DNA from: Eledone cirrhosa
Lineage: Eukaryota
DNA length: 64,000 bases
Reading direction: 5' to 3'
NCBI GenBank assembly: GCA_964016885.1
Contig: OZ024764.1
Span: forward strand, 24,614,001 to 24,678,000
Shown here: in pieces, positions 2,358 through 44,460 of the stretch
How positions within the stretch are numbered: position 1 is the stretch's first letter
How the letters are laid out: each line of letters starts with the position of its first letter
Made by a program: the position numbers and the translations under genes
The notes under the pieces: generated by a model
Told to the model about the DNA's origin: nothing
Database searches by the model: none
The model's input: only the letters and a program-made list of their open reading frames with translations

Positions 2358-4525
2358 AACGATGATGGCATACTTGCCATCACCGACACTGATAAGAAGG
2401 TAGCTTGGAAGTGTCACTATGAAAGGCTACTAAATGAGGAGAATAAATGGGAGAAAGACAGTCTCCCCCTTATCGACCCGATAGAGGGACCAGCAGTGTT
2501 AGTCGAGGGGAGTATAATAAGTAAGGCAATCAAGGATATGAAGACTGGTAAGGCGGCTGGGCCTTCGGAAATAGTTGCTGAGATGCTGAAGGCATCTGGC
2601 ACGGTGGGACACACCATGGTCACCCGCATAGTTAACCAAGTCGTACAGAATGGGGTTGTTCCGAAGGACTGGCATAGCAGCATCATCGTTAACTGTTATA
2701 AGGGTAAAGGAGACGCCCTAGATAGGAGTAACTATAGAGGCATTAAATTAATCGACCAGGTCATGAAGGTCACGGAAAAAGTAATAGCGCAACTAATCAG
2801 AGAGAGAATTGATCTAGATGAAATGCAGTTCGGGTTTGTGTCAGGCAAAAGCACCACAGACGCTCTTTTCATAGTACGACAACTACAGGAGAAGTACCTA
2901 GCTAAAGGTAAACCCCTCTACTTAGCTTTTGTCGACCTGGAGAAAGCCTTCGACAGAGTCCCCCGCTCCATTATCTGGTGGGCTCTTAGAAAACTAGGCG
3001 TTGACGAATGGCTTGTGAGGGCTATACAAGCCATGTATAAAGAAACAGTCAGCAAGGTTAGAATTAACAACGAATATAGTGAAGAGTTTAGCGTAAAAGT
3101 TGGCGTCCATCAGGGCTCTGTTCTCAGCCCCCTACTATTTATTATTGCCCTTCAGGCTATAACAGAGGAGTTCAAGACAGGCTGCCCATGGGAACTCCTA
3201 TACGCAGACGACCTGACACTCATAGCGGAATCAATGGCCGAGCTAGAGAAGAAATTCCAAACATGGAAGCACGGCCTAGAGTCAAAAGGACTTAAAATTA
3301 ACCTGGCTAAGACCAAAGTTCTAGTTTGTAGGAAAGAAAACAAGGCGGCGGTCCCTTCTGGGAAATGGTCGTGCTCGGTATGTAGGAAAGGCGTAGGTAG
3401 AAACTCCATCTTATGTCCTAAATGCAAAGTATGGGTGCATAAAAGATGTAGTGGGATCACAGGTAAGCTAACTAAGAACATAGACTTTACATGTGGCCGG
3501 TGTTCTGGTGCAATAAGTAGCAGCAAGTGCCCACAAAATACTAGCTCTTTCAATTGCGCAGAGGGTTCTATAGAAATAGTGGACAGCTTCCGTTACCTGG
3601 GCGATAAAATCAGCAGTGGGGGAGGGTGCTCTGAAAGTACTGTAGCTAGAGTCAGAACTGGTTGGAAAAAGTTCAGAGAGCTTATACCACTATTAGCTGC
3701 TAAAGGGTTCTCCCTAAAAATGAAAGGCAGGTTGTACGATGCCTGCATACGAACAGCAATGTTGCATGGTAGTGAGACCTGGGCATTGTGTGCAGAGGAT
3801 ATACGCAGACTAGAGAGGAACGAAGCTTGCATGCTCCGCTGGATGTGTAACAGTAATATACGTGAACGGCAAAGCATAAACGAACTAAGGAAAAAATTAG
3901 AGATAAGAGGGATCAGATGTTGTTTACTCGAGAGAAGGCTGCGTTGGTATGGACACGTGATGCGCATGAAAGTCGATAGCTGTATTACAAAGTGCAGGGC
4001 AATAAAGATAGACGGTAGCCACGGAATAGGCAGACCTAGAAAAACATGGGATGAGCTGATAAACTCCGACCTCACACACTTACACCTCTCCAAGACAATG
4101 TCACTGGACCGTGACCTTTGGCGGTACTCAGTAACAGAGAAGACCCGCCTTGCCAGTAGGCATATCTAACAAAATACACCCCTCCCGCCGCCACCCCCAC
4201 CCCATCCACACCACCCCGTTCTATGTAAAGTTATGTTGGTGCCGCGCCATCCAGGCCGAAACAAATGAGATCGTGTAGGTGTCACGACAAAAAAACACAC
4301 AGTCCACGCTGTAATGTGGCCGTGTAGGCAACACGGTAAAAACCTCCCAGACCCACACTGTAAATGTGGTTGGTGTTAGGAAGGGCATCCAACTGTAGAA
4401 AACCTGCCAGACAGTCCTATGCGAGCAAGACAATCACTCTTGCCTCAAGTGGGACTACCCCCGTCCAAACCCATGCAAGCGTGGAACACGGACGTTAAAC
4501 GTTGATGATGATGATGATGATGATA
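2358..4525 (+). mobile_element. RTE LINE, 5'-truncated, with intact RT, PHD-like finger and C-terminal domain
   Basis: NYRGIKL, QFGF, FVDLEKAFDRV, GVHQGSVLSP, LLYADD, RLRWYGHVMR, GRPRKTW motifs; (GAT)n tail; (TA)n on both sides. Confidence 0.95.
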
Positions 4526-4715
4526 TATATATATATATATATGTGTGCGAACCACCACTACCACCCCAACACCATATATATATATATATAAACAAGAGGT
4601 ATAAGTCAACATTTCATAATTTACTTCTTTCTTTACCGTTATATATATTTACTTTTCTCTGATATTATTTTTTCTCTAAGAAAAATTTTGTTTTTTTATG
4701 TTTTCTATGTGTTGC

Positions 4716-5933
4716 TTGTAACTGTCTGAAGAGGTCATAGCTGTTGAGTTGTGGCTATCACGTCTTGTAACTGTCTGAAGAGGTCATAGCTGTTATAGCT
4801 ATCACCTCTTGTAACTGTCTGAAGAGGTCATAGCTGTTGTGGCTATCACCTCTTGTAACTGTCTGAAGAGGTCATAGCTGTTGTGGCTATCACCTCTTGT
4901 ACCTGTCTGAAGAGGTCATAGCTGTTGTGGCTATCACCTCTTGTAACTGTCTGAGGTGGTCATAGCTGTTGAATTGTGGTTATCACCTCTTGTAACTGTC
5001 TGAGGAGGTCATAGCTGTTGTAACTGTCTGAAGAGGTCATAGCTGTTGTGGCTATCACCTCTTGTAACTGTCTGAAGAGGTCATAGCTGTTGTGGCTATC
5101 ATCTCTTGTAACTGTCTGAAGAGGTCATAGCTGTTGTGGCTATCACCTCTTGTAACTGTCTGAAGAGGTCATAGCTGTTGTGGCTATCACCTCTTGTACC
5201 TGTCTGAAGAGGTCATAGCTGTTGTGGCTATCACCTCTTGTAACTGTCTGAGGAGGTCATAGCTGTTGAATTGTGGCTATCACCTCTTGTAACTGTCTGA
5301 GGAGGTCATAGCTGTTGTAACTGTCTGAAGAGGTCATAGCTGTTGTGGCTATCACCTCTTGTAACTGTCTGAAGAGGTCATAGCTGTTGTGGCTATCACC
5401 TCTTGTACCTGTCTGAGGAGGTCATAGCTGTTGTGGCTATCACCTCTTGTAACTGTCTGAAGAGGTCATAGCTGTTGTGGCTATCACCTGTTGTAACTGT
5501 CTGAGGAGGTCATAGCTGTTGTGGCTATCACCTCTTGTACCTGTCTGATGAGGTCATAGCTGTTGTAGCTATCACCTCTTGTAACTGTCTGAAGAGGTCA
5601 TAGCTGTTGTGGCTATCACCTCTTGTAACTGTCTGAAGAGGTCATAGCTGTTGTGGCTATCACCTCTTATACCTGTCTGATGAGGTCATAGCTGTTGTGG
5701 CTTTCACCTGTTGTAACTGTCTGAGGAGGTCATAGCTGTTGTGGCTATCACCTCTTGTACCTGTCTGATGAGGTCATAGCTGTTGTAGCTATCACCTCTT
5801 GTAACTGTCTGAAGAGGTCATAGCTGTTGTGGCTATCACCTCTTGTAACTGTCTGAAGAGGTCATAGCTGTTGTGGCTATCACCTCTTATACCTGTCTGA
5901 TGAGGTCATAGCTGTTGAATTGTGGCTATCACT
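4716..5933 (+). repeat. 44-bp hairpin minisatellite, ~28 copies (5' half of a hammerhead)
   Basis: Unit ttgtaactgtCTGAAGAggtcatagctgttgtggctatcacctc; period 4811 to 4855. Confidence 0.95.
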
Positions 5934-5949
5934 GAAATATAGATAACAG
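5893..5949 (+). ncRNA. Type I hammerhead ribozyme motif completing the 44-bp array
   Basis: ctgt-CTGATGA-ggtcatagc...gctatcact-GAAA-tatagata-acag, with stem I ctgt/acag. Confidence 0.65.
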
Positions 5950-6008
5950 TAATGAAAGAAGTAAATTATGAAATGTTGACTTATATCTCTTGTTTATAAA
6001 TTTAGTCT

Positions 6009-7660
6009 GGAGTTAACAGACCCTCTTGAGGACTTCGTTGAGTGCTCTACCCAGCAACTGGAGTGTTGGTGTTAAACAGACCCTGTTGAGGACTTTGTTG
6101 AGTGCTCTACCAAGCAACTGGAGTGTTGGTGTTAAACAGACCCTCTTGAGGACTTTGTTGAGTGCTCTACCCAGCATACTGGAGTGTTGGTGTTAAACAG
6201 ACCCTCTTGAGGACTTTGTTGAGTGCTCTACCCAGCATACTGGAGTGTTGGTGTTAAACAGACCCTCTTGAGGACTTTGTTGAGTGCTCTACCCAGCATA
6301 CTGGAGTGTTGGTGTTAAACAGACCCTCTTGAGGACTTTGTTGAGTGCTCTACCCAGCATACTGGAGTGTTGGTGTTAAACAGACCCTCTTGAGGACTTC
6401 GTTGAGTGCTCTACCCAGCATACTGGAGTGTTGGTGTTAAACAGACCCTGTTGAGGACTTTGTTGAGTGCTCTACCCAGCATACTGGAGTGTTGGTGTTA
6501 AACAGACCCTGTTGAGGACTTCGTTGAGTGCTCTACCCAGCATACTGGAGTGTTGGTGTTAAACAGACCCTGTTGAGGACTTCGTTGAGTGCTCTACCCA
6601 GCATACTGGAGTGTTGGTGTTAAACAGACCCTCTTGAGGACTTTGTTGAGTGCTCTACCCAGCATACTGGAGTGTTGGTGTTAAACAGACCCTCTTGAGG
6701 ACTTTGTTGAGTGCTCTACCCAGCATACTGGAGTGTTGGTGTTAAACAGACCCTCTTGAGGACTTTGTTGAGTGCTCTACCCAGCATACTGGAGTGTTGG
6801 TGTTAAACAGACCCTGTTGAGGACTTTGTTGAGTGCTCTACCCAGCATACTGGAGTGTTGGTGTTAAACAGACCCTGTTGAGGACTTCGTTGAGTGCTCT
6901 ACCCAGCATACTGGAGTGTTGGTGTTAAACAGACCCTGTTGAGGACTTCGTTGAGTGCTCTACCCAGCATACTGGAGTGTTGGTGTTAAACAGACCCTGT
7001 TGAGGACTTCGTTGAGTGCTCTACCCAGCATACTGGAGTGTTGGTGTTAAACAGACCCTGTTGAGGACTTCGTTGAGTGCTCTACCCAGCGTACTGGAGT
7101 GTTGGTGTTAAACAGACCCTGTTGAGGACTTTGTTGAGTGCTCTACCCAGCATACTGGAGTGTTGGTGTTAAACAGACCCTGTTGAGGACTTCGTTGAGT
7201 GCTCTACCCAGCATACTGGAGTGTTGGTGTTAAACAGACCCTGTTGAGGACTTCGTTGAGTGCTCTACCCAGCATACTGGAGTGTTGGTGTTAAACAGAC
7301 CCTCTTGAGGACTTGGTTGAGTGCTCTACCCAGCATACTGGAGTGTTGGTGTTAAACAGACCCTCTTGAGGACTTCGTTGAGTGCTCTACCCAGCATACT
7401 GGAGTGTTGGTGTTAAACAGACCCTCTTGAGGACTTCGTTGAGTGCTCTACCCAGCGTACTGGAGTGTTGGTGTTAAACAGACCCTGTTGAGGACTTCGT
7501 TGAGTGCTCTACCCAGCATACTGGAGTGTTGGTGTTAAACAGACCCTCTTGAGGACTTCGTTGAGTGCTCTACCCAGCAACTGGAGTGTTGGTGTTAAAC
7601 AGACCCTCTTGAGGACTTCGTTGAGTGCTCTACCCAGCATACTGGAGTGTTGGTGTTAAA
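6009..7660 (+). repeat. 60/61-bp minisatellite, ~27 copies
   Basis: Unit ctggagtgttggtgttaaacagaccctcttgaggactttgttgagtgctctacccagcata. Confidence 0.95.
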
Positions 7661-7771
7661 CTAACACATAATCTTATTAATTAGATAGGTCAGCCAGTTT
7701 CAGATATACGAGCGATTAATGGCCGGCTTTGCCATAGTCAAATAACTAAATAGTTTTATCGCTCCACATAT

Positions 7772-7890
7772 ATATTATATTTTGTTTATTTCAGTGACTC
7801 CCATGTTGAAATGGAGGGCCCAGGTGTGGCACAGTGTTGTCTTGACTCCCATGTTGAAATGGAGGGCCCAGGTGTGGCACAGTGTTGTCT
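7772..7890 (+). pseudogene. Decayed duplicate of the exon A acceptor and 5' end, with a 48-bp tandem duplication
   Basis: atattatattttgtttatttcagtgactccc versus the real atattatattttgtctgtttcagtgactccc (9121-9151). The atgga.ggcc and tgtggcacagt blocks are also shared. Confidence 0.6.
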
Positions 7891-9115: not shown

Positions 9116-9143
9116 TATATATATTATATTTTGTCTGTTTCAG

Positions 9144-9252
9144 TGACTCCCGTGCCGTGATGGATGGCCACAGATCCCGGGTGTTTGTGGCACAGTATCA
9201 TCCTTTCACAAAGAATATCTTTATATCAGGTGGATGGGATGACACTGTACAG
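9144..9252 (+). CDS. WD40-repeat protein, internal exon A (DSRAVMDGHRSRVFVAQYHPFTKNIFISGGWDDTVQ)
   Basis: Polypyrimidine tract + tttcag acceptor and cag|gtgagt donor. GH...SGGWD-TV is a WD40 motif. Ends in phase 0 and joins exon B in frame. Confidence 0.88.
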
Positions 9253-16429: not shown

Positions 16430-16545
<116 letters not shown>

Positions 16546-16686
16546 CCAAAGATTAGTATGGTTCGTTGATTACTCAACGAATACAATATTACAATAGATT
16601 AGAAGCTCTCAACAAGTAATTTTCCTGGAGTTTTTAATATTATTCAAAATATTAACAAATGAAAAATATTTTCATAATCAAAATAT

Positions 16687-16752
16687 ATATTTTATTATAC
16701 ATATTTCAAAGGTACTATGGTGTTAAAGTACGTTTTCATCAGACAAAATATA
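16687..16752 (-). ncRNA. Type I hammerhead motif in a separate pLTR fragment (~16545-16810)
   Basis: Minus strand reads UAUUUUGU-CUGAUGA-AAA.GUAC...GUAC.UUU-GAAA-UAUGUAUA-AUAAAAUA, followed by an ACTCCA...TTGAGAGCTTCTA tail. Confidence 0.7.
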
Positions 16753-16822
16753 TGATTTGATATGTGACATACCGCTACGGTTCTGATTATTCAATTCCAG
16801 TATTGGCAGTTAAAAAAAAAAA

Positions 16823-16862
<40 letters not shown>

Positions 16863-16900
16863 ATTAAATAAATGGAAAACTATATTTATAAAACCATATT

Positions 16901-16966
16901 TATTTCATTATATATATTTCGGGGATATCATATTAACAATATGCTATGCCTTCATCAGACAAAATA
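16901..16966 (-). ncRNA. Type I hammerhead motif (left arm)
   Basis: Reverse complement of 20287-20352. Confidence 0.7.
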
Positions 16967-18039
16967 CAATATAAACAGTTTTATAGATAAATAGATTCGA
17001 CATACCGTAATAACACCGACTTCATTTGAAGAGGTTTACGCTGGCAGTGAAAAAATTTTATACAGAGAGAAAGAAAGAGAGAAAAAAAGAAAGAAAGACA
17101 AAACGAAGAAAAGGAAGAAAAAGAAGAAAAAGAAGAAAAAGAAAAAGAAGAAATGCATGGAACAAAATAGAGAGATGGAAAGATAGATAAAGCGAAGAAC
17201 TTCATGTAAAGAAACAGAAAGAGATATATATATATAGAGAGAGAGGAAATAGAGATAGATACATATATATATAGAAAATTAGGTAGTGGGAGGTCATTTT
17301 GAGTAAATGTATCAATGATACATTTATTTATTTATTTATTTATTTAGCTCAGGTATTAATGTAAGGGAGATATATATATAGAGAAAAAAATATAGAGAGA
17401 GGAAAAAAATAGCGAGAGAAAAAAATTTAAAAATAGCCAGACATATTCGAGGCGTAAAAACCCTATGTTTTAATGTATTAGTATTTATAAAACTTACACT
17501 ATATTGTAAATATCAGTATTCCTGAATGAGACAAGTATCCATAATGTGTGAAAATTAATTATCTTATGTTTAGTTTTAAAAAAATTCATATGTTTATGTG
17601 ACAGCTACAAACATCCATGCGAATCCAACTGATTCACTCTGCAAACTCTAAGTTCACGGAAAACATTCTCAATGTGGTATAAAAATTTGAGCGTATTATT
17701 ATTCCTGTCATTACTCTACAAGATTATCTATCAAGCAGAAATAGAGAGCAGATTTCAATATACTAATAAAAATATATATTATAAACAAAACTAAAAGTAA
17801 AAAGATAACAATAATAATAATAAGTAAAAATATAGAATAGAGAACTAAAAAAATATTACGAAAGAATATTACATAATAAAAATATTACATATTAAAAATA
17901 CTACGTATTAAAAAATATTACGTATTAAAAATTTACATATTAAAGATATTAAAAATAAAATAAAAAATAAAAAATATTATAGAATACTACAATAATAAAA
18001 AATAAAAAATAAAAAATAAAAAATAAAAATAAAAATAAA

Positions 18040-18858
18040 GGGGCAGGATATGCTGATAAGATTGTGTACATAGATAATGATAGACAAACTAAACAAAGTA
18101 ACAACTTTTTTAATTACGGCAACAACATTAACAACTATAATAGAAAGCATTACAATAATTCCAAAGGACAAAAAAGAAATAGAACTAGGAACATAATTTG
18201 GTTTGCCCCCCCTTTCTCACTAAACATTAAAACCCACATCGCTAAATTATTTTTCAAAGCTCTTGATAATCGCTTCCCTAGAACACATAGGTATCACTCA
18301 ATTTTCAATAGGCATACAATTAAATTAACCTACTCATCCACCAAAAATTTTGCACAAAATATTAATAGAATAAATAATAGGAACTTAAAACCTACTGATA
18401 ATAGCATAAATAATATACAAGTTAACAAATGTAACTGTAGAGATAGATCTAAATGTCCGTTAAATAACAACTGCTTAGTTAAAAATATAGTATACAATTG
18501 TAATGTTAATACTGACTCTAATTCTTTTAACTACGTCGGTTCCACATCGACGGAATTTAAACTTCGCTATAATAACCACAAGAATTCTTTCACAGATCCA
18601 AGTAAAAAATCTTCAACGGCACTATCAGGCGTACTCTGGCAACTTAAGCTAGATAACGTTAGATATTCGACGGCTTGGAATATAGTCTCAAGAGGGATTC
18701 CTTTTAATTCATCCTCTGAGACATGTGACCTCTGCGCAGAGGAGATATTCTTTATACTAAAATCTAAAAATTCCCTTAACCTACGGACAAATTTATTCAG
18801 TTGTTGCAAACATAGATTAAACTCAACGTTTAAATATAAATTTAAATTTAAAATGTAG
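18040..18858 (+). CDS. Penelope-like linker + GIY-YIG endonuclease (RT lost by truncation)
   Basis: RNIIWFAPPFS, IFNRHTIKLTYS, CNCRDRSKCPLNNNCL, NIVY...YVGST, RYNNH, CDLCAEE, LNLR, CKH. Confidence 0.85.
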   Translation, partial: GAGYADKIVYIDNDRQTKQSNNFFNYGNNINNYNRKHYNNSKGQKRNRTRNIIWFAPPFSLNIKTHIAKLFFKALDNRFPRTHRYHSIFNRHTIKLTYSSTKNFAQNINRINNRNLKPTDNSINNIQVNKCNCRDRSKCPLNNNCLVKNIVYNCNVNTDSNSFNYVGSTSTEFKLRYNNHKNSFTDPSKKSSTALSGVLWQLKLDNVRYSTAWNIVSRGIPFNSSSETCDLCAEEIFFILKSKNSLNLRTNLFSCCKHRLNSTFKYKFKFKM

Positions 18859-20286
18859 TATATTTAGTTTGATTTATATTTATATGGGAAACTAGCCGAT
18901 AAATTTTTTGATTCCTAAATCTTTGATTCCCTCTTTTTACTCTTTTTTTATTGTTTATTTTTATTTTATTTTTATCTAAGCATTCCTCATGAAAAATTAA
19001 GCTACCCTAAAAGCTGATGCTCCAAATTTTTTGAATTAACCTTACACTAGATAAACTTCTATATTAAATATAAGAACATATGTAGACCTAATTGGACATC
19101 ATAATCTTTTTGAAATGATCTTTGCTAGATGTGATTTGATAGATAATTTTTTGGCTTTGTCTTGTAATGAACTTGGCAATATATTGTCAATTAACTTTGA
19201 AGGGTTGTTCTTTGTGGTTTATTTTTATTTTTATTTTTATTTTTATTTTTATTTTTATTTTTTATTATTGTAGTATTCTATAATATTTTTTTATTTTTAA
19301 TTTTATTTTTAATATCTTTAATATGTAAATTTTTAATACGTAATATTTTTTAATACGTAGTATTTTTAATATGTAATATTTTTATTATGTAATATTCTTT
19401 CGTAATATTTTTTTAGTTCTCTATTCTATATTTTTACTTATTATTATTATTGTTATCTTTTTACTTTTAGTTTTGTTTATAATATATATTTTTATTAGTA
19501 TATTGAAATCTGCTCTCTATTTCTGCTTGATAGATAATCTTGTAGAGTAATGACAGGAATAATAATACGCTCAAATTTTTATACCACATTGAGAATGTTT
19601 TCCGTGAACTTAGAGTTTGCAGAGTGAATCAGTTGGATTCGCATGGATGTTTGTAGCTGTCACATAAACATATGAATTTTTTTAAAACTAAACATAAGAT
19701 AATTAATTTTCACACATTATGGATACTTGTCTCATTCAGGAATACTGATATTTACAATATAGTGTAAGTTTTATAAATACTAATACATTAAAACATAGGG
19801 TTTTTACGCCTCGAATATGTCTGGCTATTTTTAAATTTTTTTCTCTCGCTATTTTTTTCCTCTCTCTATATTTTTTTCTCTCTCTATATATCTCCCTTAC
19901 ATTAATACCTGAGCTAAATAAATAAATAAATAAATAAATGTATCATTGATACATTTACTCAAAATGACCTCCCACTACCTAATTTTCTATATATATATGT
20001 ATCTATCTCTATTTCCTCTCTCTCTATATATATATATCTCTTTCTGTTTCTTTACATGAAGTTCTTCGCTTTATCTATCTTTCCATCTCTCTATTTTGTT
20101 CCATGCATTTCTTCTTTTTCTTTTTCTTCTTTTTCTTCCTTTTCTTCGTTTTGTCTTTCTTTCTTTTTTTTCTCTCTTTCTTTCTCTCTGTATAAAATTT
20201 TTTCACTGCTAGCGTAAACCTCTTCAAATGAAGTCGGTGTTATTACGGTATGTCGAATCTATTTATCTATAAAACTGTTTATATTG

Positions 20287-20352
20287 TATTTTGTCTGATG
20301 AAGGCATAGCATATTGTTAATATGATATCCCCGAAATATATATAATGAAATA
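20287..20352 (+). ncRNA. Type I hammerhead motif (right arm)
   Basis: CTGATGA at 20295-20301, stem II (ata.catatt/aatatg.tat), GAAA at 20333-20336, TATATATA, stem I tattttgt/atgaaata. Confidence 0.7.
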
Positions 20353-20480
20353 AATATGGTTTTATAAATATAGTTTTCCATTTATTTAATATTGTAAATA
20401 TACTCCAAATATTTGTCGAGTGCTTTTATATCAGTTATAAATATTTACTAGTTGTAACCCAACAATTTTAAATATAACTT

Positions 20481-20532
<52 letters not shown>

Positions 20533-20649
20533 GAGGTTATATTTAATTTGTTGGGATTCAACAAGCTTAAAACCATATTTATGGAAGCTCCAAGCGTTAA
20601 GGTTGTCTTTTTACCGGATATGTCAATATTTAGTTATAAAACAAATCTG

Positions 20650-20716
20650 TATTTTATCTGATGAAAGCGCACCATAATTTGCTTTGGTTGCCCTTGAAAT
20701 ATATATAATAAAATAA
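20650..20716 (+). ncRNA. Type I hammerhead motif in a solo pLTR fragment (20530-20750)
   Basis: tattttat-CTGATGA-aagcgcacca...tggttgccctt-GAAA-tatatata-ataaaata. Confidence 0.75.
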
Positions 20717-20746
20717 ATATGGTTTTATAAATATAGTTTCCATTTA

Positions 20747-20872
<126 letters not shown>

Positions 20873-22775: not shown

Positions 22776-25700
22776 TCATCATCATCATCATCATTTTACA
22801 TCGGCTTTTTCCTACTTGCAAGGGTGGGACTGGTCCTATTCAGCACAGCATCTCTCCATTTGTCATGGTCCTTCGTCGTCTCCACCGTGAGCTTCAGTGA
22901 TCTGAAGTCTGCTCTCACCACTTCCGTCCATGCTTTTCGTGGTCTTCCTCTACTGCGTCTTCCTTCCACTGGGATTTCTTGGCACTTCTTTACTCAGCGG
23001 TAATCCTCCATGCACATCACATGTCCATACCATCGCAGTCTCCTCTCCCACACACCACAGCCTATCCCTCTTATACACAGTTTCTCTCTCAACACATCCA
23101 TGCTCAGTTGTTCATGCACATTGACATTGCACATCCATCGGAGCATGCTTGCCTCATTTCTTTCCAGCCGTCGCATATCCTCTGCAGTTGCTGCCCATGT
23201 CTCACTACCAAGCAACATTGCGCACTTCACACAGGCATCATATAACCCTCCTTTCGTACGCAGGGAGAAACCCTTCTTCGTCAGCAGAGGAAGCAGCTCC
23301 CTAAACTTCTTCCAACCCGTCCTTATTCTAGATACTATGGCCTCGGAACACCACCCTCCCATGCTAATCTGATCTCCTAGGTACCGGAAGCTATCCACCA
23401 CTTCTATAGTACCCGCCTGCATTTGAAAAATGTGACTATCAATGCGACTTCTACTGTCTAATTTCCCTGTACATCTACTGCATACGTATTTCTCCCTACC
23501 TGTTAGTTTGCCTGCCATCCCACTACATCTCTTGTGTATCCAGGATCTGCATTGTGTGCATTTTATAGAATTTATGCCAGTTCCTTTTCTGTATATCGAA
23601 CATGGCCATTTCCCTGATGGAATCAGAGTTTTGTCCTCTTTTCTACTCATCAACACTTTTGTCTTAGCTAAGTTCACTCTCAGTCTTCTTGATTCCAACT
23701 GCTGTTTCCATAGCCAGAATTTATTCTCTAGCTCCTCTACTGATTCTGCTATAAGAACCAGATCATCAGCATAGAGAAGTTCCCATGGGCAGCTAGTCTT
23801 AAACTCTTCTGTTATGGCTTGGAGGACTATAATGAACAAGAGCGGGCTGAGGACCGAACCTTGATGTACTCCTACTTGTATCTGGAATTCCTCACTAAAC
23901 TCCATTCCTACCCTGACTTTAGTGACAGCACCTCTGTACAAAGTTTGCACTGTCCTCACAAGCCATTCCTCAACACCTAGCTTCCTTAGGGACCACCAGA
24001 TGACAGATCAAGGTACCCTATCAAAGGCCTTCTCTAGGTCAACACAGTCTAAGTATAGTGGCTTATTTTTCTCTAAGAACCTCTCTTATAATTGTCTCAC
24101 CAAGAAGAGGGCATCTGTTGTACTCTTCCCAGGCACAAAACCAAACTGCATCTCATCTAGTTTGACCCTTTCTCTAATTAGTTGCGCCAATATCCTTTCT
24201 GCCACTTTCATAACCTGATCTATCAGTTTTATACCCCTATAATTGCTTGTCTAGAGCATCCCCTTTACCTTTGTAGCAATTTATGAGAATACTGTTGCAC
24301 CAGTCTTTGGGTATGACACCACCATATATAGTCTGATTGATGATGCGTGCAACTAGTTTATTTCCTACGTCCCCTGATACCTTCAGCATCTCAGCAACTA
24401 TCCCCGACGGTCCAGCGGCCTTACCATTTTTCCTTTCCTTAATCACCTCTTGGACCCTATATTTGTCAGTCTCAATAGCTGGTCCCTCTGTTGGATCTAC
24501 TGGTGGTAATTCCTCTTTGTCCCATTCGTTCTCTACATTCATCAGTCTCTCATAATGACATTTCCAGGCCTCCTTTTTCTGATCATTCGTGACACTAAGT
24601 ACACTGGTATCATTCCAGACACATTTATCTCCAACAACATCCTGATTTGCATTGACACACTGCCTTGCAATGTGGAACACCGCACGCCTCTGATCTTCCC
24701 GTCGCAGAACATTGGTAAACCTCCTACTCTCAGCCTCCCTGCATGCTAAGTAGACCTGACGTCTAGCTTCTCTCTTAGCGGCTGTATATCCTTCTCTACT
24801 CCCACCATTTTTTCAAACGTTCCATGCTAGTCTTTTGTCTCTAATGGCCCTATCTACCGTGCTGTTCCACCACTAGGTCACTCTCTGTCTGGTTGAAGCT
24901 CTGCCCCAACCACAAGTTTTTTCAGTAGCCTGCAGCAAGTTGTCACGTAAGAAATTCCAGTTATCATGTATGTCATACGACTCTAAATCGTCTTCTTTTT
25001 CGTCATACACATCTTGAAGGGCTTTCCTAAATTTATATTTTAGTGAAAGGTCTTTTAGCTTCCAGACGTTTCTTCTCCACACCTTCCTATATGTCTCATT
25101 CCATCTCTTGCTTACTGAGATATCATTAACGACTAACCTATGCTGTGGGGTACATTCTTCCCCAGGGTATGCCTTAGTATTTGACACCATCTGCCTCTCC
25201 CGCTGCCTAACTAGTAAGAAGTCAATCTGGCTTATGTGCTCACCAGATTTGTAGGTTATTAGGTGATTGGCAGGTTTCTGGAAGTTAGTGTTGCAAATGA
25301 TTAGTGCACTTGCATCACAAAATTCAAGAAGTCTCACTCCTTCTTCATTTCTTGAACCGTAACTGTGCCCACCATGTACCCCAGTGTAACCATCCTGGAG
25401 CTGTCCAACATGACCATTGAAGTCTCCTGCTAGCATAACAATGTCTCCGTCCTCTATCATTGTGGCAGTTTGTAAAAGTTGCTCGTAAAAGCTGTCTTTC
25501 TCATCTTTGCCTAGGCCTGCCTGGGGAGCATAGGCAGAGATGATTGTCAGTAGTCTCCTGCCTACAACTAATCTAAGCTTAATTATTCTATTACTAACTC
25601 TAACTACCTCTATTGTCTTATTGATCCATCTCTCAGCCAGTAATATGTTCACCCCCCCCTAACCCATCATCCTTACCTACCCAGAAAAGCTTATAACTAA

Positions 25701-26680: not shown

Positions 26681-29572
26681 ATATGTATATATATATATAT
26701 ATATATACTTCATCATCATCATCATCATCGTTTAATGTCCATTTTCCACGCTAGTATGTGTTTAGACGGGAATTGTCCCACGTGAGGCAAGATTGGTCGT
26801 CTCGCTCATATAGGACTGTCTGGCAGGTTTTCTACGGCTGGATGCCCTTCCTAACAACAACCACGTTTTCAGTGTGGACTGGGAGGTTTTTACCGTGTTA
26901 CCTACATGGCCACATTACAGCGTGGACTGTGTGTTTTTTTGTCATGACACCTACACGACCTCATTTATTTAGGACTGGATGATGTGTCACCAACATAACT
27001 TTAAATCGAAAGGGGTGGTGTGGATGGGGTGGGGGTTGTGGGACGGGGTGTATATTTGATTAAGAGGTGCCTTCTGACTGTAGGTTTCGCTTTGTACTTA
27101 GGCAAGGCGGGTCTTCTATATTACTGCGTAGTGCCAAAGATCTCGGTCCAGTGACATTGTCTTGGAGAGGTGTAAGTGTGTGAGGTCGGAATTTATCAAG
27201 TCGTCCCAGGTTTTTCTGAGTCTGCCTACTCTGTGGCTACCGTCTATTTTGATCGCCCTGCACTTTTTTATACAGCTGTCGTCTTTCATGCGTATCACGT
27301 AACCATACCAACGTAGTCTTCTCTCAAGTAAACAACATCTGATCCCTCTTATTCCTAATTTCTCACTTAATTCATTTATGCTTTGCCGTTCACGTATATT
27401 ACTATTACACATCCAGCGGAGCATGCAAGCTTCGTTCCTCTCCAGTCTGCGTATATCCTCTGCACACAATGCCCAGGTCTCACTGCCATGTAACATTGCT
27501 GTTCGTATGCAAGCATCATACAGCCTGCCTTTCATTTTTAAGGAGAACCCTTTAGCAGCCAATAGTGGTATAAGCTCTCTGAACCTTTTTCCATCCCGTT
27601 CTGACACTAGCTACTGTACTTTCAGAGCACCCTCCACTACTGCTGATTTTGTCACCCAGGTAACGGAAGGTGTCCACTATTTCTATAGAACCATCTGGGC
27701 AATGGAATGTGCTAGTATTCTGTGGGCACTTGCTGCTACTTATTGTACCAGCGCACCGGCCACATATAAAATCTATATTCTTAGTTAGCTTACCTGTGAT
27801 CACACTACATCTTTTATGCACCCATACTTTGCATTTGGGACATAAGATGGAGTTTCTACCTACTCCTTTCCTACACACTGAGCATGGCCATTTCCCAGAT
27901 GGGACCGGTGCCCTATTTTCATTCTTACATACTAGAACTTTAGTCTTAGACAAGTTAACTTTAAGGCCTTTTGATTCTAGGCCATGCTTCCAAGTTCAGC
28001 CATTGATTCAGCTATAAGCGTTATATCATCTGCGTATAGAAGTTCCCATGGGCAGCCGGTCTTGAACTCCTCTGTTATAGCCTGAAGGGCAATAATAAAT
28101 ACGAGGGGCTAAGGGCAGAGCCCTGATGTACATACTTTTACGCTAAATTCTTCACTATATTCGTTGTTAATTCTAACGTTGCTGACTGTTTCTTTATACA
28201 TGGCTTGTATAGCTCTCACAAGCCATTCATCTACACCTAGTTTTCTAAGCGACCACCAGATAATGGAGCGGGAGACTCTGTCAAAGGCTTTCTCCAAGTC
28301 GACAAAAGCTAAGTATAGGGGTTTACTTTTATCTAGGTACTTCTACTGTAGTTGTCATACAAGGAAAAAAGCGTCTGTGGTACTTTTACCTGACACAACC
28401 CAAACTGCATTTCATCCAGATCAATTCGCTCTCTGATTAGTTGTGCTATAACTTTTTCTGTGACCTTCATGACCTGGTCAATTAATTTAATGTCTCTATA
28501 GTTTCCTCTATCAAGAGCATGTCCTTTACCCTTGTAGCAGTTAATGATGATGCTGCTATGCCAGTCATTTGGCATGACCCCATTCTGTTTGACTTGGTTT
28601 ACTATCTGGGTGACCATAGTGTGTCCCACCGATCCAGATGCTTTCAGCATTTCAGCAACTATCCCCAAAGTCCCAGCTGCTTTGCCTGTCTTCATATCTT
28701 TGATTGCCTTACTTATTATACTAGCTTCAACTTGCACTGCTGGTCCCTCTATTGGATCGATTTGGGGCAGACTATCTTTTCCCCACTTATTCTCCTCATT
28801 TAGTAGCCTCTCGTAGTGACACTTCCAAGCTACCTTCTTATCAGCATCAGTGATGGCAAGTACAACATCATCATTATGGACACACTTCTCCCCGACAATA
28901 TCACGGTTTTCCTTGACACATTGTCTAGCAATCCTGAACACCTCACGTTTTTGGTCCTCACGTTGTAGAACATGCTTGAACTTTCTTTCCTCTGCTTCCC
29001 TTCTTGCAAAGTACACTTTTCTCCTAGCTTCCCTCCTGGCCACTTAATAGTCTTTTCTACTTCCCTCATCCCGCCATACTTTCCAAGCTTGCTTTTTGGC
29101 CTTGATTGACTCCTCCACTTTACTGTTCCACCACCACGTTACTCTCCTCCTGCCTATAGGTCTGCTCCAGCCACAGATTTCATATGTCGCCTTCAGCAGG
29201 TTAGCTTTCAGGAAATCCCCACTGTTCCTCTATATTGTACAACTCTAATTGCTCTTCCTTACTGTCAAAAGCATCAAGTAATATGCTTTTAAATTTGTTA
29301 CTGGCAGTGGGGTCCTTTAACTTCTATATTCTTTTCCTCAGGGTTGTCTTCCTCTGTTGTCGAGTATGTCTACTCCTGACTATGAGGTCACTAACTATGA
29401 GGCTATGTTGGGAGGTGCATTCTTCATGGGGGAGGGATTTAGAGTTTACAACAGACACTCTGGCACGTCTTCTGGTAAGGATATAATCTATCTGACTGGC
29501 GTGTTCCCCTGACCTATAGGTGATCAAGTGATTGTCTCATTTTTTGAAGTCTGTGTTACAGATAGTTAGGTT

Positions 29573-29971
29573 TATAACAAAATACTGGTGTGTATGAATA
29601 TAACAAAGATGCTCAGTTGTGTATATAACGTTTAATTAACAATTTGCAGTTATGTAGAATAGTATAGTTGACAAGTCAATGAATGTAGATGAAAGAATGA
29701 AGTAAAGTTATTTGTTACTGTTTTGAAGTTAGCTCGCAAAAGACCATGTTAGGGTTGCCAGCCGAAGGGCCAGGCAGGCTAGAAGGCCAGGAGCCGAAAG
29801 GCAAATGAGAGAGAGATCGCTCTGAGTATCCCTTTTATAGGGTCTCAAGCCGGAAGTGACAAAAAAGGGTTCTGCCACCCCAACGGGAGTAACTCCAGCT
29901 ACTTCCTGTCTAGAGAGCGTTAATCTATTGGTGATGTGATCGTCACAACAAGGGAGGCAACTCTTGCTACA
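29573..29971 (-). mobile_element. Solo LTR (399 bp) with a 4-bp TSD, Ty3/Gypsy-like
   Basis: Minus strand TGTAGCAA...TTGTTATA; TSD ggtt at 29569-29572 and 29972-29975; TATAAAA and ATTAAA inside. Removing it restores RTE CDANNL-TICNTDF. Confidence 0.75.
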
Positions 29972-30171
29972 GGTTATTTGCGTCACAGAATTCCAGGATT
30001 TTGAAGCCTTCCTCATTTCTGGTACCAAACCCGTAGCCTCCATGGACTCCGTCATAGCCACCACAATGTTGTCCAACGTGACCATTTAGGTCACCAGCAA
30101 TACTTATGTAGTCACTGTCGGTTATTTGGGAGGTAGTGAGCATTAGCAACTCATAGAACCTGTCTTTTATA

Positions 30172-30360
30172 AATGTTTCTACGTTAGGCACAAGGCCAGC
30201 AATTACCCAGTGCATTACTGGTACTTTATTTTATCGACCCCGTAAGGATGAAAGGCAAAGTCAACCTCGACGGGATTTGAACTCAGATCGTAAAGGGACG
30301 TAACTATGCTGGAAAGCATGGCGTCCGACCCTCTACCGATACTGCCAATCCACCACACTA
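30172..30360 (-). mobile_element. SINE family B inserted in the RTE
   Basis: Reverse complement of 34360-34547. Confidence 0.88.
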
Positions 30361-38322: not shown

Positions 38323-38393
38323 TATTTTATTATGCGCATTTCAAAAACAAATATCATCATGCAATAACATTTGTGTTTTCATCAGATAAAATA
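38323..38393 (-). ncRNA. Type I hammerhead ribozyme motif
   Basis: Minus strand reads UAUUUUAU-CUGAUGA-AAACACAAAUGUUAUU...GAUGAUAUUUGUUUUU-GAAA-UGCGCA-UA-AUAAAAUA, with a perfect 8-bp stem I and palindromic stem III. Confidence 0.8.
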
Positions 38394-41776: not shown

Positions 41777-41780
<4 letters not shown>

Positions 41781-41840
41781 ATCTGATGAAAGCGCACCAT
41801 AATTTGCCTTGGTGGCCCTTGAAATATGTATAATAAAATA
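41777..41840 (+). ncRNA. Type I hammerhead motif at the PLE 3' end
   Basis: CTGATGA at 41783-41789 and GAAA at 41821-41824; same family as 1154 and 20650. A (GAT)n tract sits just upstream. Confidence 0.75.
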
Positions 41841-41920: not shown

Positions 41921-42130
41921 CTTAAGGGTATTTTGTAATATTTATTTTGTTTCTCTTTCGCTACTTCTGAAAATGGTATGTTATGATTTTTTTCTCTTTT
42001 TTCTCTGTTTTTTCTATATTTCTGTACTTGCACAAGTTACTTCTAAAATTATATTCTTACCTAACTGCATGGTCTATAGCACACCTGAATTTTAATACCA
42101 TCTTTCTAATTGCTTATATATCTATATCTG

Positions 42131-42161
<31 letters not shown>

Positions 42162-42164
<3 letters not shown>

Positions 42165-44460
42165 GGACACTGGGCCGCTGCGGGAAACGCAAGTCACCCG
42201 GTCTAGATGGTCTACCCTATGAGTTTTACATAGGCATGCCGGACTTGTTCTCTGGCGTCCTCGAAGCCGTCTACTGCAATTGGCAGCAGAACGGGAGAAT
42301 TCCCAGTTCTGCAGGCAGGGGCGTAGTAACGCTGATCAGGAAAGACGAGAACAAGGGGGACGAAATTAACAACTTCAGGCCCATAACTCTGCTCAACGCA
42401 GAGTTAAAGATTTTGGCCAAGGTGCTAGCGACGAGGTTGGCGCTTGTCGTCGAGAAGCTGGTAGGGAAAGCGCAAACGTGTGCAATCCTGACCAGGTCCA
42501 TACACGACAACCTCCACCTCATGTGATACATCATAGAGAGGGTGGGTAGTAAACCCGGCTTCGGTGGGGTTCTGATCAACTTGGATCAGTCTAAGACATT
42601 CGATAGGGTCGACCATCGATACTTGGAAGCGGTTCTCAAGGCGGCCGGTTTCGGTCCCATTTTCAGAGGCTGGATCGAGGCGATGCACACCCGCATCTGC
42701 TCGAGGGTCAAGGTGAACGGCTACCTATCAGAGTCGTTCGCAATCATGCGTTCCATTCGACGAGGATGCCCTCTCTCCTCCATTCTGTATGTATTGACTC
42801 TAGAGCCACTACTGCGGAAATTGGAGCTGTTGCAGGGCATCCCTCTAGAACCGGGACTGCGCAAAGCAGTAATGGTAATGGTGTCGAGCACCTCGGTAAT
42901 TGGGGTGATCAGCAACTTACTGAAAGAATACGAAACGCTGGCGGGAGCAAAACTAAACCCGGACAAGTCTGTCGGTTTACAACTCGAGACGTGGAGAGGC
43001 AAACCGATGACGTCCGACAGCGTCGTTGGACGCTGGACGGATGGACCGGTGAAATTGCTCGGGGTCTGGTTCGGTCCAGACCCCCAGGTGGTGAAAAACT
43101 GAAATGAGGTCATGGCCAAGGTGTTTGCGCTCACCCAGAAGTGGGCAAAATGCAAACTGTCCTTGAAAGGTCGAGTGGAGGTGGCGAACACTTTCATAGC
43201 GTCCGTCATCTACTACCGCTTGACTGTCGTGCCTTGTCCCCGTGAACACCTCACCAAGATGGAACGCATGCTCTTCCAGTTTCTGTGGAAGAAGCAGGCT
43301 CCGCTGGTGAGGAGATCCGTCTGCTGTCAGCACCCTTCCAACGGAGGGCTAGGAATGCCGTGGCTGATGATGCGCAAACATGCGCTGAGGCTGCGACACC
43401 TCCAGGTATTCCTCACCGACCCCCAACCGGTGGGGGCACCGTTTGTGAGACAGGCTTTCCCACAGCTCGTCTCGCTGATGGAGCTGCAGTCCTGGGTCAA
43501 GAAAAGACCGAAAATGATGGGCGCCTGGCACATTGAATGCGCTCAGGCGCTCACAGTCCTCTGGCAAGCAGGCGCAGCAATCAGTGGAGACTCCACTTCG
43601 ACATTCTATAGAGGGATTGTATGTTACAAGGGCGACGACGTGCTCGGAGAGACTCTGGGCGTCGAAGACGATGAGCTCACCAGTCTGTTTGGTAGGACTT
43701 TCCGCTTGGGACCTATGGACAACTTCCAGAGGTCTCTGGTCTGGCAGTGCTACCGAGGAGCTCTACCGGCTCACGACAAGATCTACAGGCACGAACGCCC
43801 CGGCAGGGATCCTTCCAAGAGGACGTGTCCAAGATGCGCGCAGGACATTGAAACAGTCCTGCACGCAATTGTAAACTGCCCGGGCGTAACCGACCTGTGG
43901 AGCTATGGAGAACAATTGCTGTCGCGTATGGAACAAATCCAGTTAACTGCCGAGTCCATACTAAGGATCAAACCGCCAGCCTCTTTCAAAAACGAAAAAG
44001 AGGCGTTTTCCTCTCTACAGTGGCTATGGTGAAAGAGGTTATATGGTGGACGAGATTGAGAGGACTGAGGACAGATGCCTTTCTCTCCGGACAACAATTG
44101 ATTCCCTTCTTTAAGTATCACTTTAGAAGGAGAATCAGAGAGGAGAGAGAGGCACTGCACCCCAGTAAAGTTACTGAAAGGTGGGTGAATGAAGCGAAAA
44201 TGGCCCGAGTGATTGGGCCTTCTCTGTTTATAAGCCTGTAGGTTAAAGAAGAAAGGAACACTTGCACAACATGCTCCTGAAGTTGAGGGTTGTTCTATCT
44301 ACGGGGTATTAAACAACCCATTTGTGGCACCTCCCCCCTATTGGGGATTTCGATTGTTATAATTGTTTGTTTTATATTTTTTACACGACTGTATGTAAAA
44401 TCCCCGGCATGTCTTTGTATTGGCCCCTTTTCTTGTGCGCCCTTGTGGCTAATAAAGAAA
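42162..44460 (+). mobile_element. L1/Tx1-clade LINE, 5'-truncated, degraded ORF2
   Basis: KSPGLDGLP, NFRPITLLN, LDQSKTFDRV, GGLGMP, CPRC...H...C. Ends AATAAAGAAA; flanked by (TCTA)n. Confidence 0.92.

Follow-up and report, generated by a model that had tools for sequence, protein, structure and literature searches.

Half-hammerhead tandem arrays in a Penelope-like element and a size series from single copies to a 477-kb satellite

Positions 4587-7680 of the analysed window, a stretch of 64,000 nucleotides (G000:C25:24,614,001-24,678,000) from a 3.0-Gb animal assembly, are, as judged from sequence, the decayed two-armed end of a truncated Penelope-like element (PLE), in which 27 half-hammerhead units precede one complete type I hammerhead and a tail segment of 61 bp is present 27 times (Table 1). 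What is new is a traceable series of such loci, which leads from the single copy to an array of 477 kb and has a structure-defined junction. We regard it as reasonably probable that a hairpin-guided event produced the seed, that a source copy with few units was retrotransposed, and that DNA slippage and unequal exchange subsequently acted at each locus.

Table 1. Features of the PLE insertion and of the adjacent host gene (positions in the window)
Feature	Position	Strand	Evidence or remark
Second PLE arm, inverted and 5'-truncated	4587..4650	-	60/64 identical to 5935-5998
pLTR stretch 5' of the hammerhead	4651..4721	+	78-93% matches directly 5' of the hammerhead in family copies
27 half-hammerhead units (22 x 44, 3 x 49, 2 x 28 bp)	4722..5892	+	no GAAA, no cleavage site
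Complete, decayed type I PLE hammerhead	5893..5949	+	descriptor scan, covariation (11 motifs), model R1 (44.5 bits)
pLTR from the hammerhead to end site 1	5950..5998	+	many family copies stop here in (AT)n
Optional PLE tail, inflated here by the 61-bp array	5999..7680	+	tailed family copies end at the equivalent of ~7680
27 x 61-bp local minisatellite	6008..7661	+	GTTAA(A)C microhomology at the borders; three private alleles fixed
Downstream exon of the host WD40-repeat gene	9144..9252	+	WD40 E 0.004, below the curated cut-off

The element, its family and its host gene

The inverted arm spans the segment from GAAA-stem III to end site 1, adjoins an (AT)n run and gives the insertion a head-to-head shape that is also seen in many family copies. 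The pLTR stretch next to it terminates in GCTT(G)TAA, the 5' arm of a hairpin designated H1. Each half unit is made up of the 5' strand of stem I, CUGANGA, stem II and the junction, and the optional tail measures ~95 bp in single copies. The first-pass annotation had described the array as bracketed by 64-bp inverted repeats; the similarity is real, but the repeat is the inverted second arm of the PLE, overlaps the last hammerhead and is not a terminal repeat of the array. Terminal inverted repeats of a DNA transposon were rejected as an explanation. An assembly artefact was likewise rejected, given the patterned differences among the units and the high read depth.

WD40 exons on the + strand flank the insertion (C25:24,587,1xx and the downstream exon in Table 1), as deduced from translation, which supports the earlier placement of the element in sense orientation within a host intron; a PDB search with the host exon gave no match. 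Just past the array, the host 3' splice site together with the beginning of the exon (9117-9195) is duplicated in degenerate form at 7767-7890, a segment that holds a 48-bp unit twice and might act as a decoy acceptor.

A DNA search in which 40 of 2,056 candidates were scored yielded 30 loci, which show collinearity with the window after collapse of the arrays. Many of these loci are two-armed and lie in (AT)n, and they end at the equivalent of 5998 or ~95 bp beyond. Both the inverted 5' arm and the optional tail are therefore present in the family, and both are PLE traits described in the literature (PMC8557442, PMC3846280). Longer family copies carry a Cys-rich linker and an endonuclease upstream of the pLTR, and the existence of single-unit progenitors with this PLE endonuclease upstream bears out the proposed origin of the arrays from a PLE pLTR. 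In tblastn searches, the window's other PLE fragment matched L003, L132 and L133 with 41% identity (E 7e-29), and endonuclease matches were also obtained in L126, L128, L130, L134 and L136. From sequence motifs, we take the upstream protein to be a GIY-YIG-type endonuclease and the family to belong to the Neptune group of PLEs; Pfam gave no family for the endonuclease or for its RT-bearing relative P0001. Only one longer relative, P0001, was obtained from the database, and it matches the family endonuclease at E 1.8e-11; it presumably carries PLE RT motifs and in 8 of 25 related loci matches RT sequence located 5' of the endonuclease (E < 1e-25); its RT match in L168, a copy of the subfamily termed A below, is weak (E 5e-6). 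Among the loci examined, no intact subfamily-A or source element was found.

Further PLE hammerhead ends lie in the window at 960-1345, 16530-20490, 20540-20750, 38325-38391, 41777-41838, 1479 and 39338, and one two-armed copy among them contains an endonuclease reading frame at ~18,020-18,858. Decayed LINE-type copies occupy 2400-3980 (RVT_1 with a PHD finger), 22997-25658, 27119-30230, 42110-44029 and 58100-61500.

The two arrays of the window and the last hammerhead

The half-hammerhead array comprises 28 unit starts between 4722 and 5893, namely the units of the three lengths given in Table 1 and the complete last unit; the two 28-bp units are devoid of the 3' hairpin arm. The description as a half-ribozyme repeated 28 times is correct for the number of unit starts, but 27 are half units and the 28th is complete. 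Similarly, the cores had all been said to fit CUGANGA, which holds for 27 of 28 (17 CTGAAGA, 6 CTGAGGA and 4 CTGATGA) but not for one CTGAGGT. Unit 6 is broken. Two further claims were confirmed: GAAA is reached by the last unit alone, none being present in 4722-5930, and the 3' CCUCUU can pair back on AAGAGG, the predicted fold of an internal unit having a z of -3.1 with 1 of 200 shuffles as good. Units 18-22 recur as units 23-27, and a pair of one 49-bp and one 28-bp unit recurs 7 units further on. Divergence amounts to 2.1% among the units of the 61-bp array and 4.4% among those of the 44-bp array, to 6% between the arms (4/64) and to 12.5% among family copies. At least nine further arrays with units of 45-113 bp are present in the window. 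A 72-bp minisatellite unit is found at three places, two of them in the window (55326-55969 and 61603-62374) and one 9 Mb away (L242:830-1090), indicating that same-boundary recurrence also happens outside PLEs.

The 61-bp array (27.2 copies, 98% matches) is built on the tail motif TTGAGTGCTCTA, as had been recognized before; the motif occurs 27 times in the array and once at 1279. Sites with a motif of this kind lie in the window at 1279, 6038, ~20415 and ~16605, the last two being the previously reported variants, which are indeed similar motifs in the respective tails. Several PLE families that otherwise differ have retained a TTGAGTGCTCTA-like motif in their optional tails; the motif is a candidate recognition site for the PLE protein. 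The 61-bp unit was found repeated in 0 of 29 other loci. Its three private alleles are fixed in 26 of 26 internal units, and among 25 tails of the family they were seen 0, 0 and 1 times, respectively, indicating that the array arose after the copy had aged in place, and the microhomology at its junction comprises 5-7 bases. We conclude that the 61-bp array is the product of a separate, later and local slippage at this microhomology. The idea that one pLTR was expanded at two adjacent segments thus remains valid in that both arrays are real, but they originated in separate events.

The last unit runs on into GAAA-TATAGA-TA-ACAG, and its identity as a hammerhead is upheld by the presence of CUGANGA, GAAA, UH and stems I-III with covariation. 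With a custom covariance model (R1) built from 7 other hammerheads of the window, 5891-5951 scored 44.5 bits (E 3.5e-8) and internal units at most 13.6 bits. The Rfam scan, which had been proposed as a check, did not recognize the last unit; since it also failed to match the intact relative L179, the model is insensitive here and its negative result uninformative. When 11 motifs drawn from several families were compared, both partners varied in 10 of 14 named pairs and 94% were paired, and 0 of 500 shuffles matched the pairing or covariation score; within the window element's own family covariation is seen in 2 pairs only. A C-C mismatch in stem II is nearly invariant across the 11 motifs, and the further PLE hammerhead ends of the window listed above share a C-C or C-U mismatch at the 4th position of stem II, except for the short motifs at 1479 and 39338. 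A simple descriptor scan detected 8 hammerhead motifs in the window, compared with 0 when the window was reversed.

Cleavage of the last hammerhead is predicted after A5945. Its decay is visible as a G10.1-U11.1 wobble at the base of stem II and a broken loop-3 palindrome. The minimum-energy fold of the last unit is not the hammerhead, and the probability of its stem I was at most 0.13 alone and 0.00 with upstream units; the progenitor L179 forms stems I and II. On these folding models, self-cleavage of the last unit is predicted to be poor. PLE-type hammerheads in general are described as requiring dimers or protein and as cleaving poorly in vitro (PMC4209133; PMC11167929). With half units that lack GAAA and have a buried core, and with a decayed last unit, the RNA of the window is probably inert, and the array is probably neutral.

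Recurrence of the junction and the C28 satellite

Amplification of independent loci at the same 44/49-bp boundary, as envisaged in the first-pass annotation, was indeed found: the 73 loci examined have 84 subfamily-A arms, of which 9, distributed over 8 loci, contain the half unit in tandem with the same junction. The two arms at C23 hold 2 and 3 units, and the other loci 3 (C22), 4 (C6), 5 (C2), 11 (C15), 17 (C13), 28 (the window, C25) and ~11,000 units (C28). Three of the loci came from junction searches, and the fair array rate is 4 of 26 loci chosen by plain similarity. A wider junction pattern produced 5,917 matches vs 6 in the control; the first 100 matches listed, which cover contigs up to C28, comprise these loci and 6 singletons. 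Matches at C4:124.87 Mb and C9:25.73 Mb were attributed to chance and dropped.

The C28 satellite extends over 476.7 kb (21,471,677-21,948,354) with ~11,100 units of the 44-bp half hammerhead; 7 of 7 internal 10-kb stretches hold 232-236 units, and 18 of 18 short internal probes consist of array. It is followed at its 3' end by a complete hammerhead (29.7 bits) and the following pLTR, and begins at its 5' end with an inverted pLTR arm lying in (AT)n. Kilobase blocks within the array are duplicated at 100% identity, and 876 of 1,276 scored contexts carry the commonest core-bearing 8-mer. As in TE-derived minisatellites and satellites, the unit matches a segment of a dispersed element, the flanks are collinear around the array, and the fixed private alleles of the window's 61-bp array and the block duplications in the window and at C28 reveal local expansion after insertion. 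In contigs of a public sample, none of which spans the arrays, the junction words had a summed depth > 100,000 vs ~5-13 for the lowest-depth contigs nearby, which shows only that the unit is very abundant, as summed depth is not copy number and the sample may be the source of the assembly. Next to it, repeats with units of 310 bp (21.470 Mb), 23/45 bp (21.30-21.34 Mb) and 34/68 bp (all probes from 20.3-21.25 Mb) are found, the last two being satellites. The surroundings are a satellite-rich domain, possibly a pericentromeric one.

Single copies read ...GTTG CTTC TAACTGTCT GAAG A GGTCATAGC-loop-GCTATCACC GAAA. In subfamily A, which has the core CUGAAGA, the upstream CTTC is predicted to pair with the core GAAG to form hairpin H1, which ends one base before stem II (H2), so that the two hairpins abut. 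The progenitors L179, L002 and L224 (3 of 3) are predicted to fold as H1+H2 as RNA and as DNA, on either strand. The 49-bp unit covers H1 and H2 exactly (H1, A and stem II) and contains one extra T, and TCTTC at the junction is the complement of the core GAAGA.

The H1+H2 fold is absent from 3 of 3 copies of a sister subfamily with the core CUGAUGA and another flank. Although this subfamily is ~10-fold commoner (546 exact core matches, i.e. 632 minus 86), no such junction was found in it, and an exact tandem search gave two arrays only, with other boundaries (one with 19-bp units, the other with 58-bp units that are whole hammerheads). The latter array (L248:1380-1730, G000:C773) has six 58-bp units, each a complete sister-subfamily hammerhead, and amounts to a very short retrozyme-like array inside one PLE end. 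The 19-bp unit (L242, G000:C25:15.427 Mb) comprises the 5' strand of stem I, CUGAUGA and the 5' strand of stem II, which is the make-up of a trans 'enzyme strand' without the self-sequestering arm. Matches to a loose sister-subfamily junction pattern were rejected as chance (107 vs 313 in the control; core in 0 of 12 loci). A third family has two short duplications with other borders. If there was a single founder event, the contrast between subfamily A and its sister represents one observation.

Origin of the arrays and relation to known systems

A template switch guided by a hairpin was likely the event that first duplicated the half-hammerhead unit. A nascent strand ending in ...ATCACC would fold back on stem II and copy its own GAAGA as TCTTC, and the new CTTC would re-anneal to the upstream CTTC site; a mirror path would work on the other strand. 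Such fold-back and realignment at CTTC would explain both unit borders and the extra T, and the junction differs from plain slippage by one base only. A source copy with a few units in place would then likely have been retrotransposed to several loci, each of which would have expanded by DNA slippage and unequal exchange; with two units present, a perfected 16-bp hairpin and the direct repeats may feed ordinary minisatellite turnover. The fixed alleles, the block repeats and the many other arrays of the window argue that bulk growth was indeed ordinary tandem turnover. Telomerase-like copying, which had been put forward as a source of the arrays, is not supported, given the private alleles of the 61-bp array, the block duplications of the 44-bp array and the restriction of the repeated 61-bp unit to the window among the loci compared. 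Instead of source alleles and independent divergence of the units, we found locus-private alleles fixed and variants arranged in blocks, which excludes telomerase-like reiteration as the source of the 61-bp array and of bulk growth.

The loci with the common junction could go back to few duplications or to many. Recurrent seeding at the DNA level, with H1 and H2 present in every subfamily-A copy and the same switch occurring independently after insertion, is in our view unlikely, although several observations suit it. At the window (C46G) and at C2 (a 4-base deletion), all junctions share a private variant with their own 5' flank, which fits a local origin, and C46G is also found in the single-unit copies L176, L206 and L220. 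Unit number differs between the arms of one insertion (1 vs 5 at C2, 3 vs 2 at C23), and both units of the C23 plus arm share the private variant G19C. Arrays are not grouped in a tree of 70 arms (8 changes; 151 of 500 shuffles as low), and the sharing of derived alleles per array pair is not significant (p 0.11), in a tree and allele test that left out 3 sister-lineage arms and 14 single arms > 15% diverged. Against independent seeding stands G33A, which at five loci is restricted to the last unit (once including the one before it) and would hardly have arisen there independently; 5 of 9 array arms have it in the terminal unit, against 3 of 75 single arms (or 2 of 25 scored when singles selected on that site are removed, p 0.007), but it is one of ~58 alleles tested and absent from 4 of 9 arms including that of the window. 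Equally hard to obtain independently is the 5-base loop deletion shared by 5 of 9 arrays, which is combined with A36G in both C6 and C28. The single-unit insertion L016 combines an arm with the loop deletion and an arm with G33A, a pattern that contraction would leave and that fits common descent. Moreover, the junctions at C15 and C22 keep the TAAC that their flanks have lost; apart from this weak TAAC loss (3/6 vs 5/47, p 0.04), alignments of flanks and tails contained no array-specific allele. From these variants we favour, without certainty, one or a few founder duplications that would have been carried by retrotransposition, ahead of a recurrent origin. Given the shared unit variants, recurrence at the same boundary alone does not point to RT.

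Seeds of 2-5 units, later overwritten, might alternatively stem from a PLE RT that stutters on folded RNA at insertion, the cDNA end GAAG folding on CTTC, adding AGGT, re-annealing to the 3' arm of stem II and recopying; this would restrict the telomerase-like mechanism of the first-pass annotation to the seed. We consider this quite improbable: the unit borders do coincide with predicted RNA hairpins, but the same hairpins form in single-stranded DNA and structure therefore does not single out RT, and the 61-bp array, the block structure and the terminal-unit variant common to several loci would all remain unexplained. In its favour are the high rate among loci chosen regardless of arrays (4/26), the different unit numbers in two arms of one insertion and the self-priming and template jumping of PLEs reported in PMC3846280. 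It is similarly doubtful that a U7-to-A change of the core made the second hairpin and thereby causes PLE RT to recopy half of its ribozyme at insertion; if this were true, seeds for short tandem repeats would arise de novo, and at a high rate, through a relative of telomerase, and one of them would have grown into a 477-kb chromosomal satellite. Very improbable is retention of the arrays for a function, be it as decoy or trans enzyme strand against PLE hammerhead RNA, as splicing brake or, at C28, as centromere-associated satellite. Such roles are suggested by the sense orientation of the window array in an intron, by the position of the C28 array beside ~1 Mb of other satellites and by the half unit, which has what we take to be the make-up of the enzyme strand of a split hammerhead in I/II format. 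However, core changes accumulate freely, as in the C28 contexts that differ from the commonest 8-mer and in unit 6 of the window, the half units are predicted to bury their own core, and the stem I probabilities of the last unit are as low as given above.

The element resembles Neptune-like EN+ PLEs in its type I hammerhead, in which stem II is long and loop 3 palindromic (PMC4209133; PMC11167929), in its head-to-head 5' arm, tail with two end sites and insertion into AT-rich microsatellites (PMC8557442; PMC3846280), and in the Cys-rich linker and GIY-YIG-like endonuclease upstream. In these sources, the tail of EN+ PLEs is 30-40 bp long, whereas here it is ~95 bp long, the core has A at position 7, and the half-hammerhead and part of the tail are tandemly amplified. 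A PLE-related type I hammerhead in tandem repeats is also the hallmark of non-LTR retrozymes such as newt satellite 2 and those of Schistosoma (bioRxiv 10.64898/2026.07.22.740005; PMC7229834). Retrozymes are defined by at least two consecutive complete hammerheads (bioRxiv 10.64898/2026.07.22.740005) and have a complete hammerhead per unit, whereas here the last unit alone is complete, and neither monomer release nor an RNA circle is predicted. Classification of the window array as a retrozyme was rejected on the absence of GAAA from 4722-5930 and the low scores of the internal units.

Further parallels come from TE-derived minisatellites and satellites, for which PMC3389668 describes local expansion of a TE segment after insertion, hotspots within the element and seeds bounded by microhomology, as in our 61-bp array, and also the occasional spread of arrays by transposition of an array-bearing element, e.g. 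LTR12. According to the same paper, the start of TE-derived tandem repeats is mostly unexplained, 6% being accounted for. Unlike the explained seeds, the 44/49-bp seed has a fold-back signature and no flanking direct repeat, and a fold-back start is among the initiation routes left unexplained there. Also unlike the arrays covered in that text, one copy here reaches 477 kb with both element ends readable. Among the titles and abstract openings listed by our literature searches, none describes a satellite of half-hammerheads on such a scale.

Together, the single copies, the seeds of 2-5 units, the minisatellites of 11-28 units and the array of ~11,000 units constitute a size series of satellite birth, which keeps the ends of the parent element, has a sister subfamily as control and would have started with an accident in the ribozyme of a retrotransposon. 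The fold-back junction makes one seeding route testable in vitro, and a PLE assay exists for this purpose, as described in PMC11167929.
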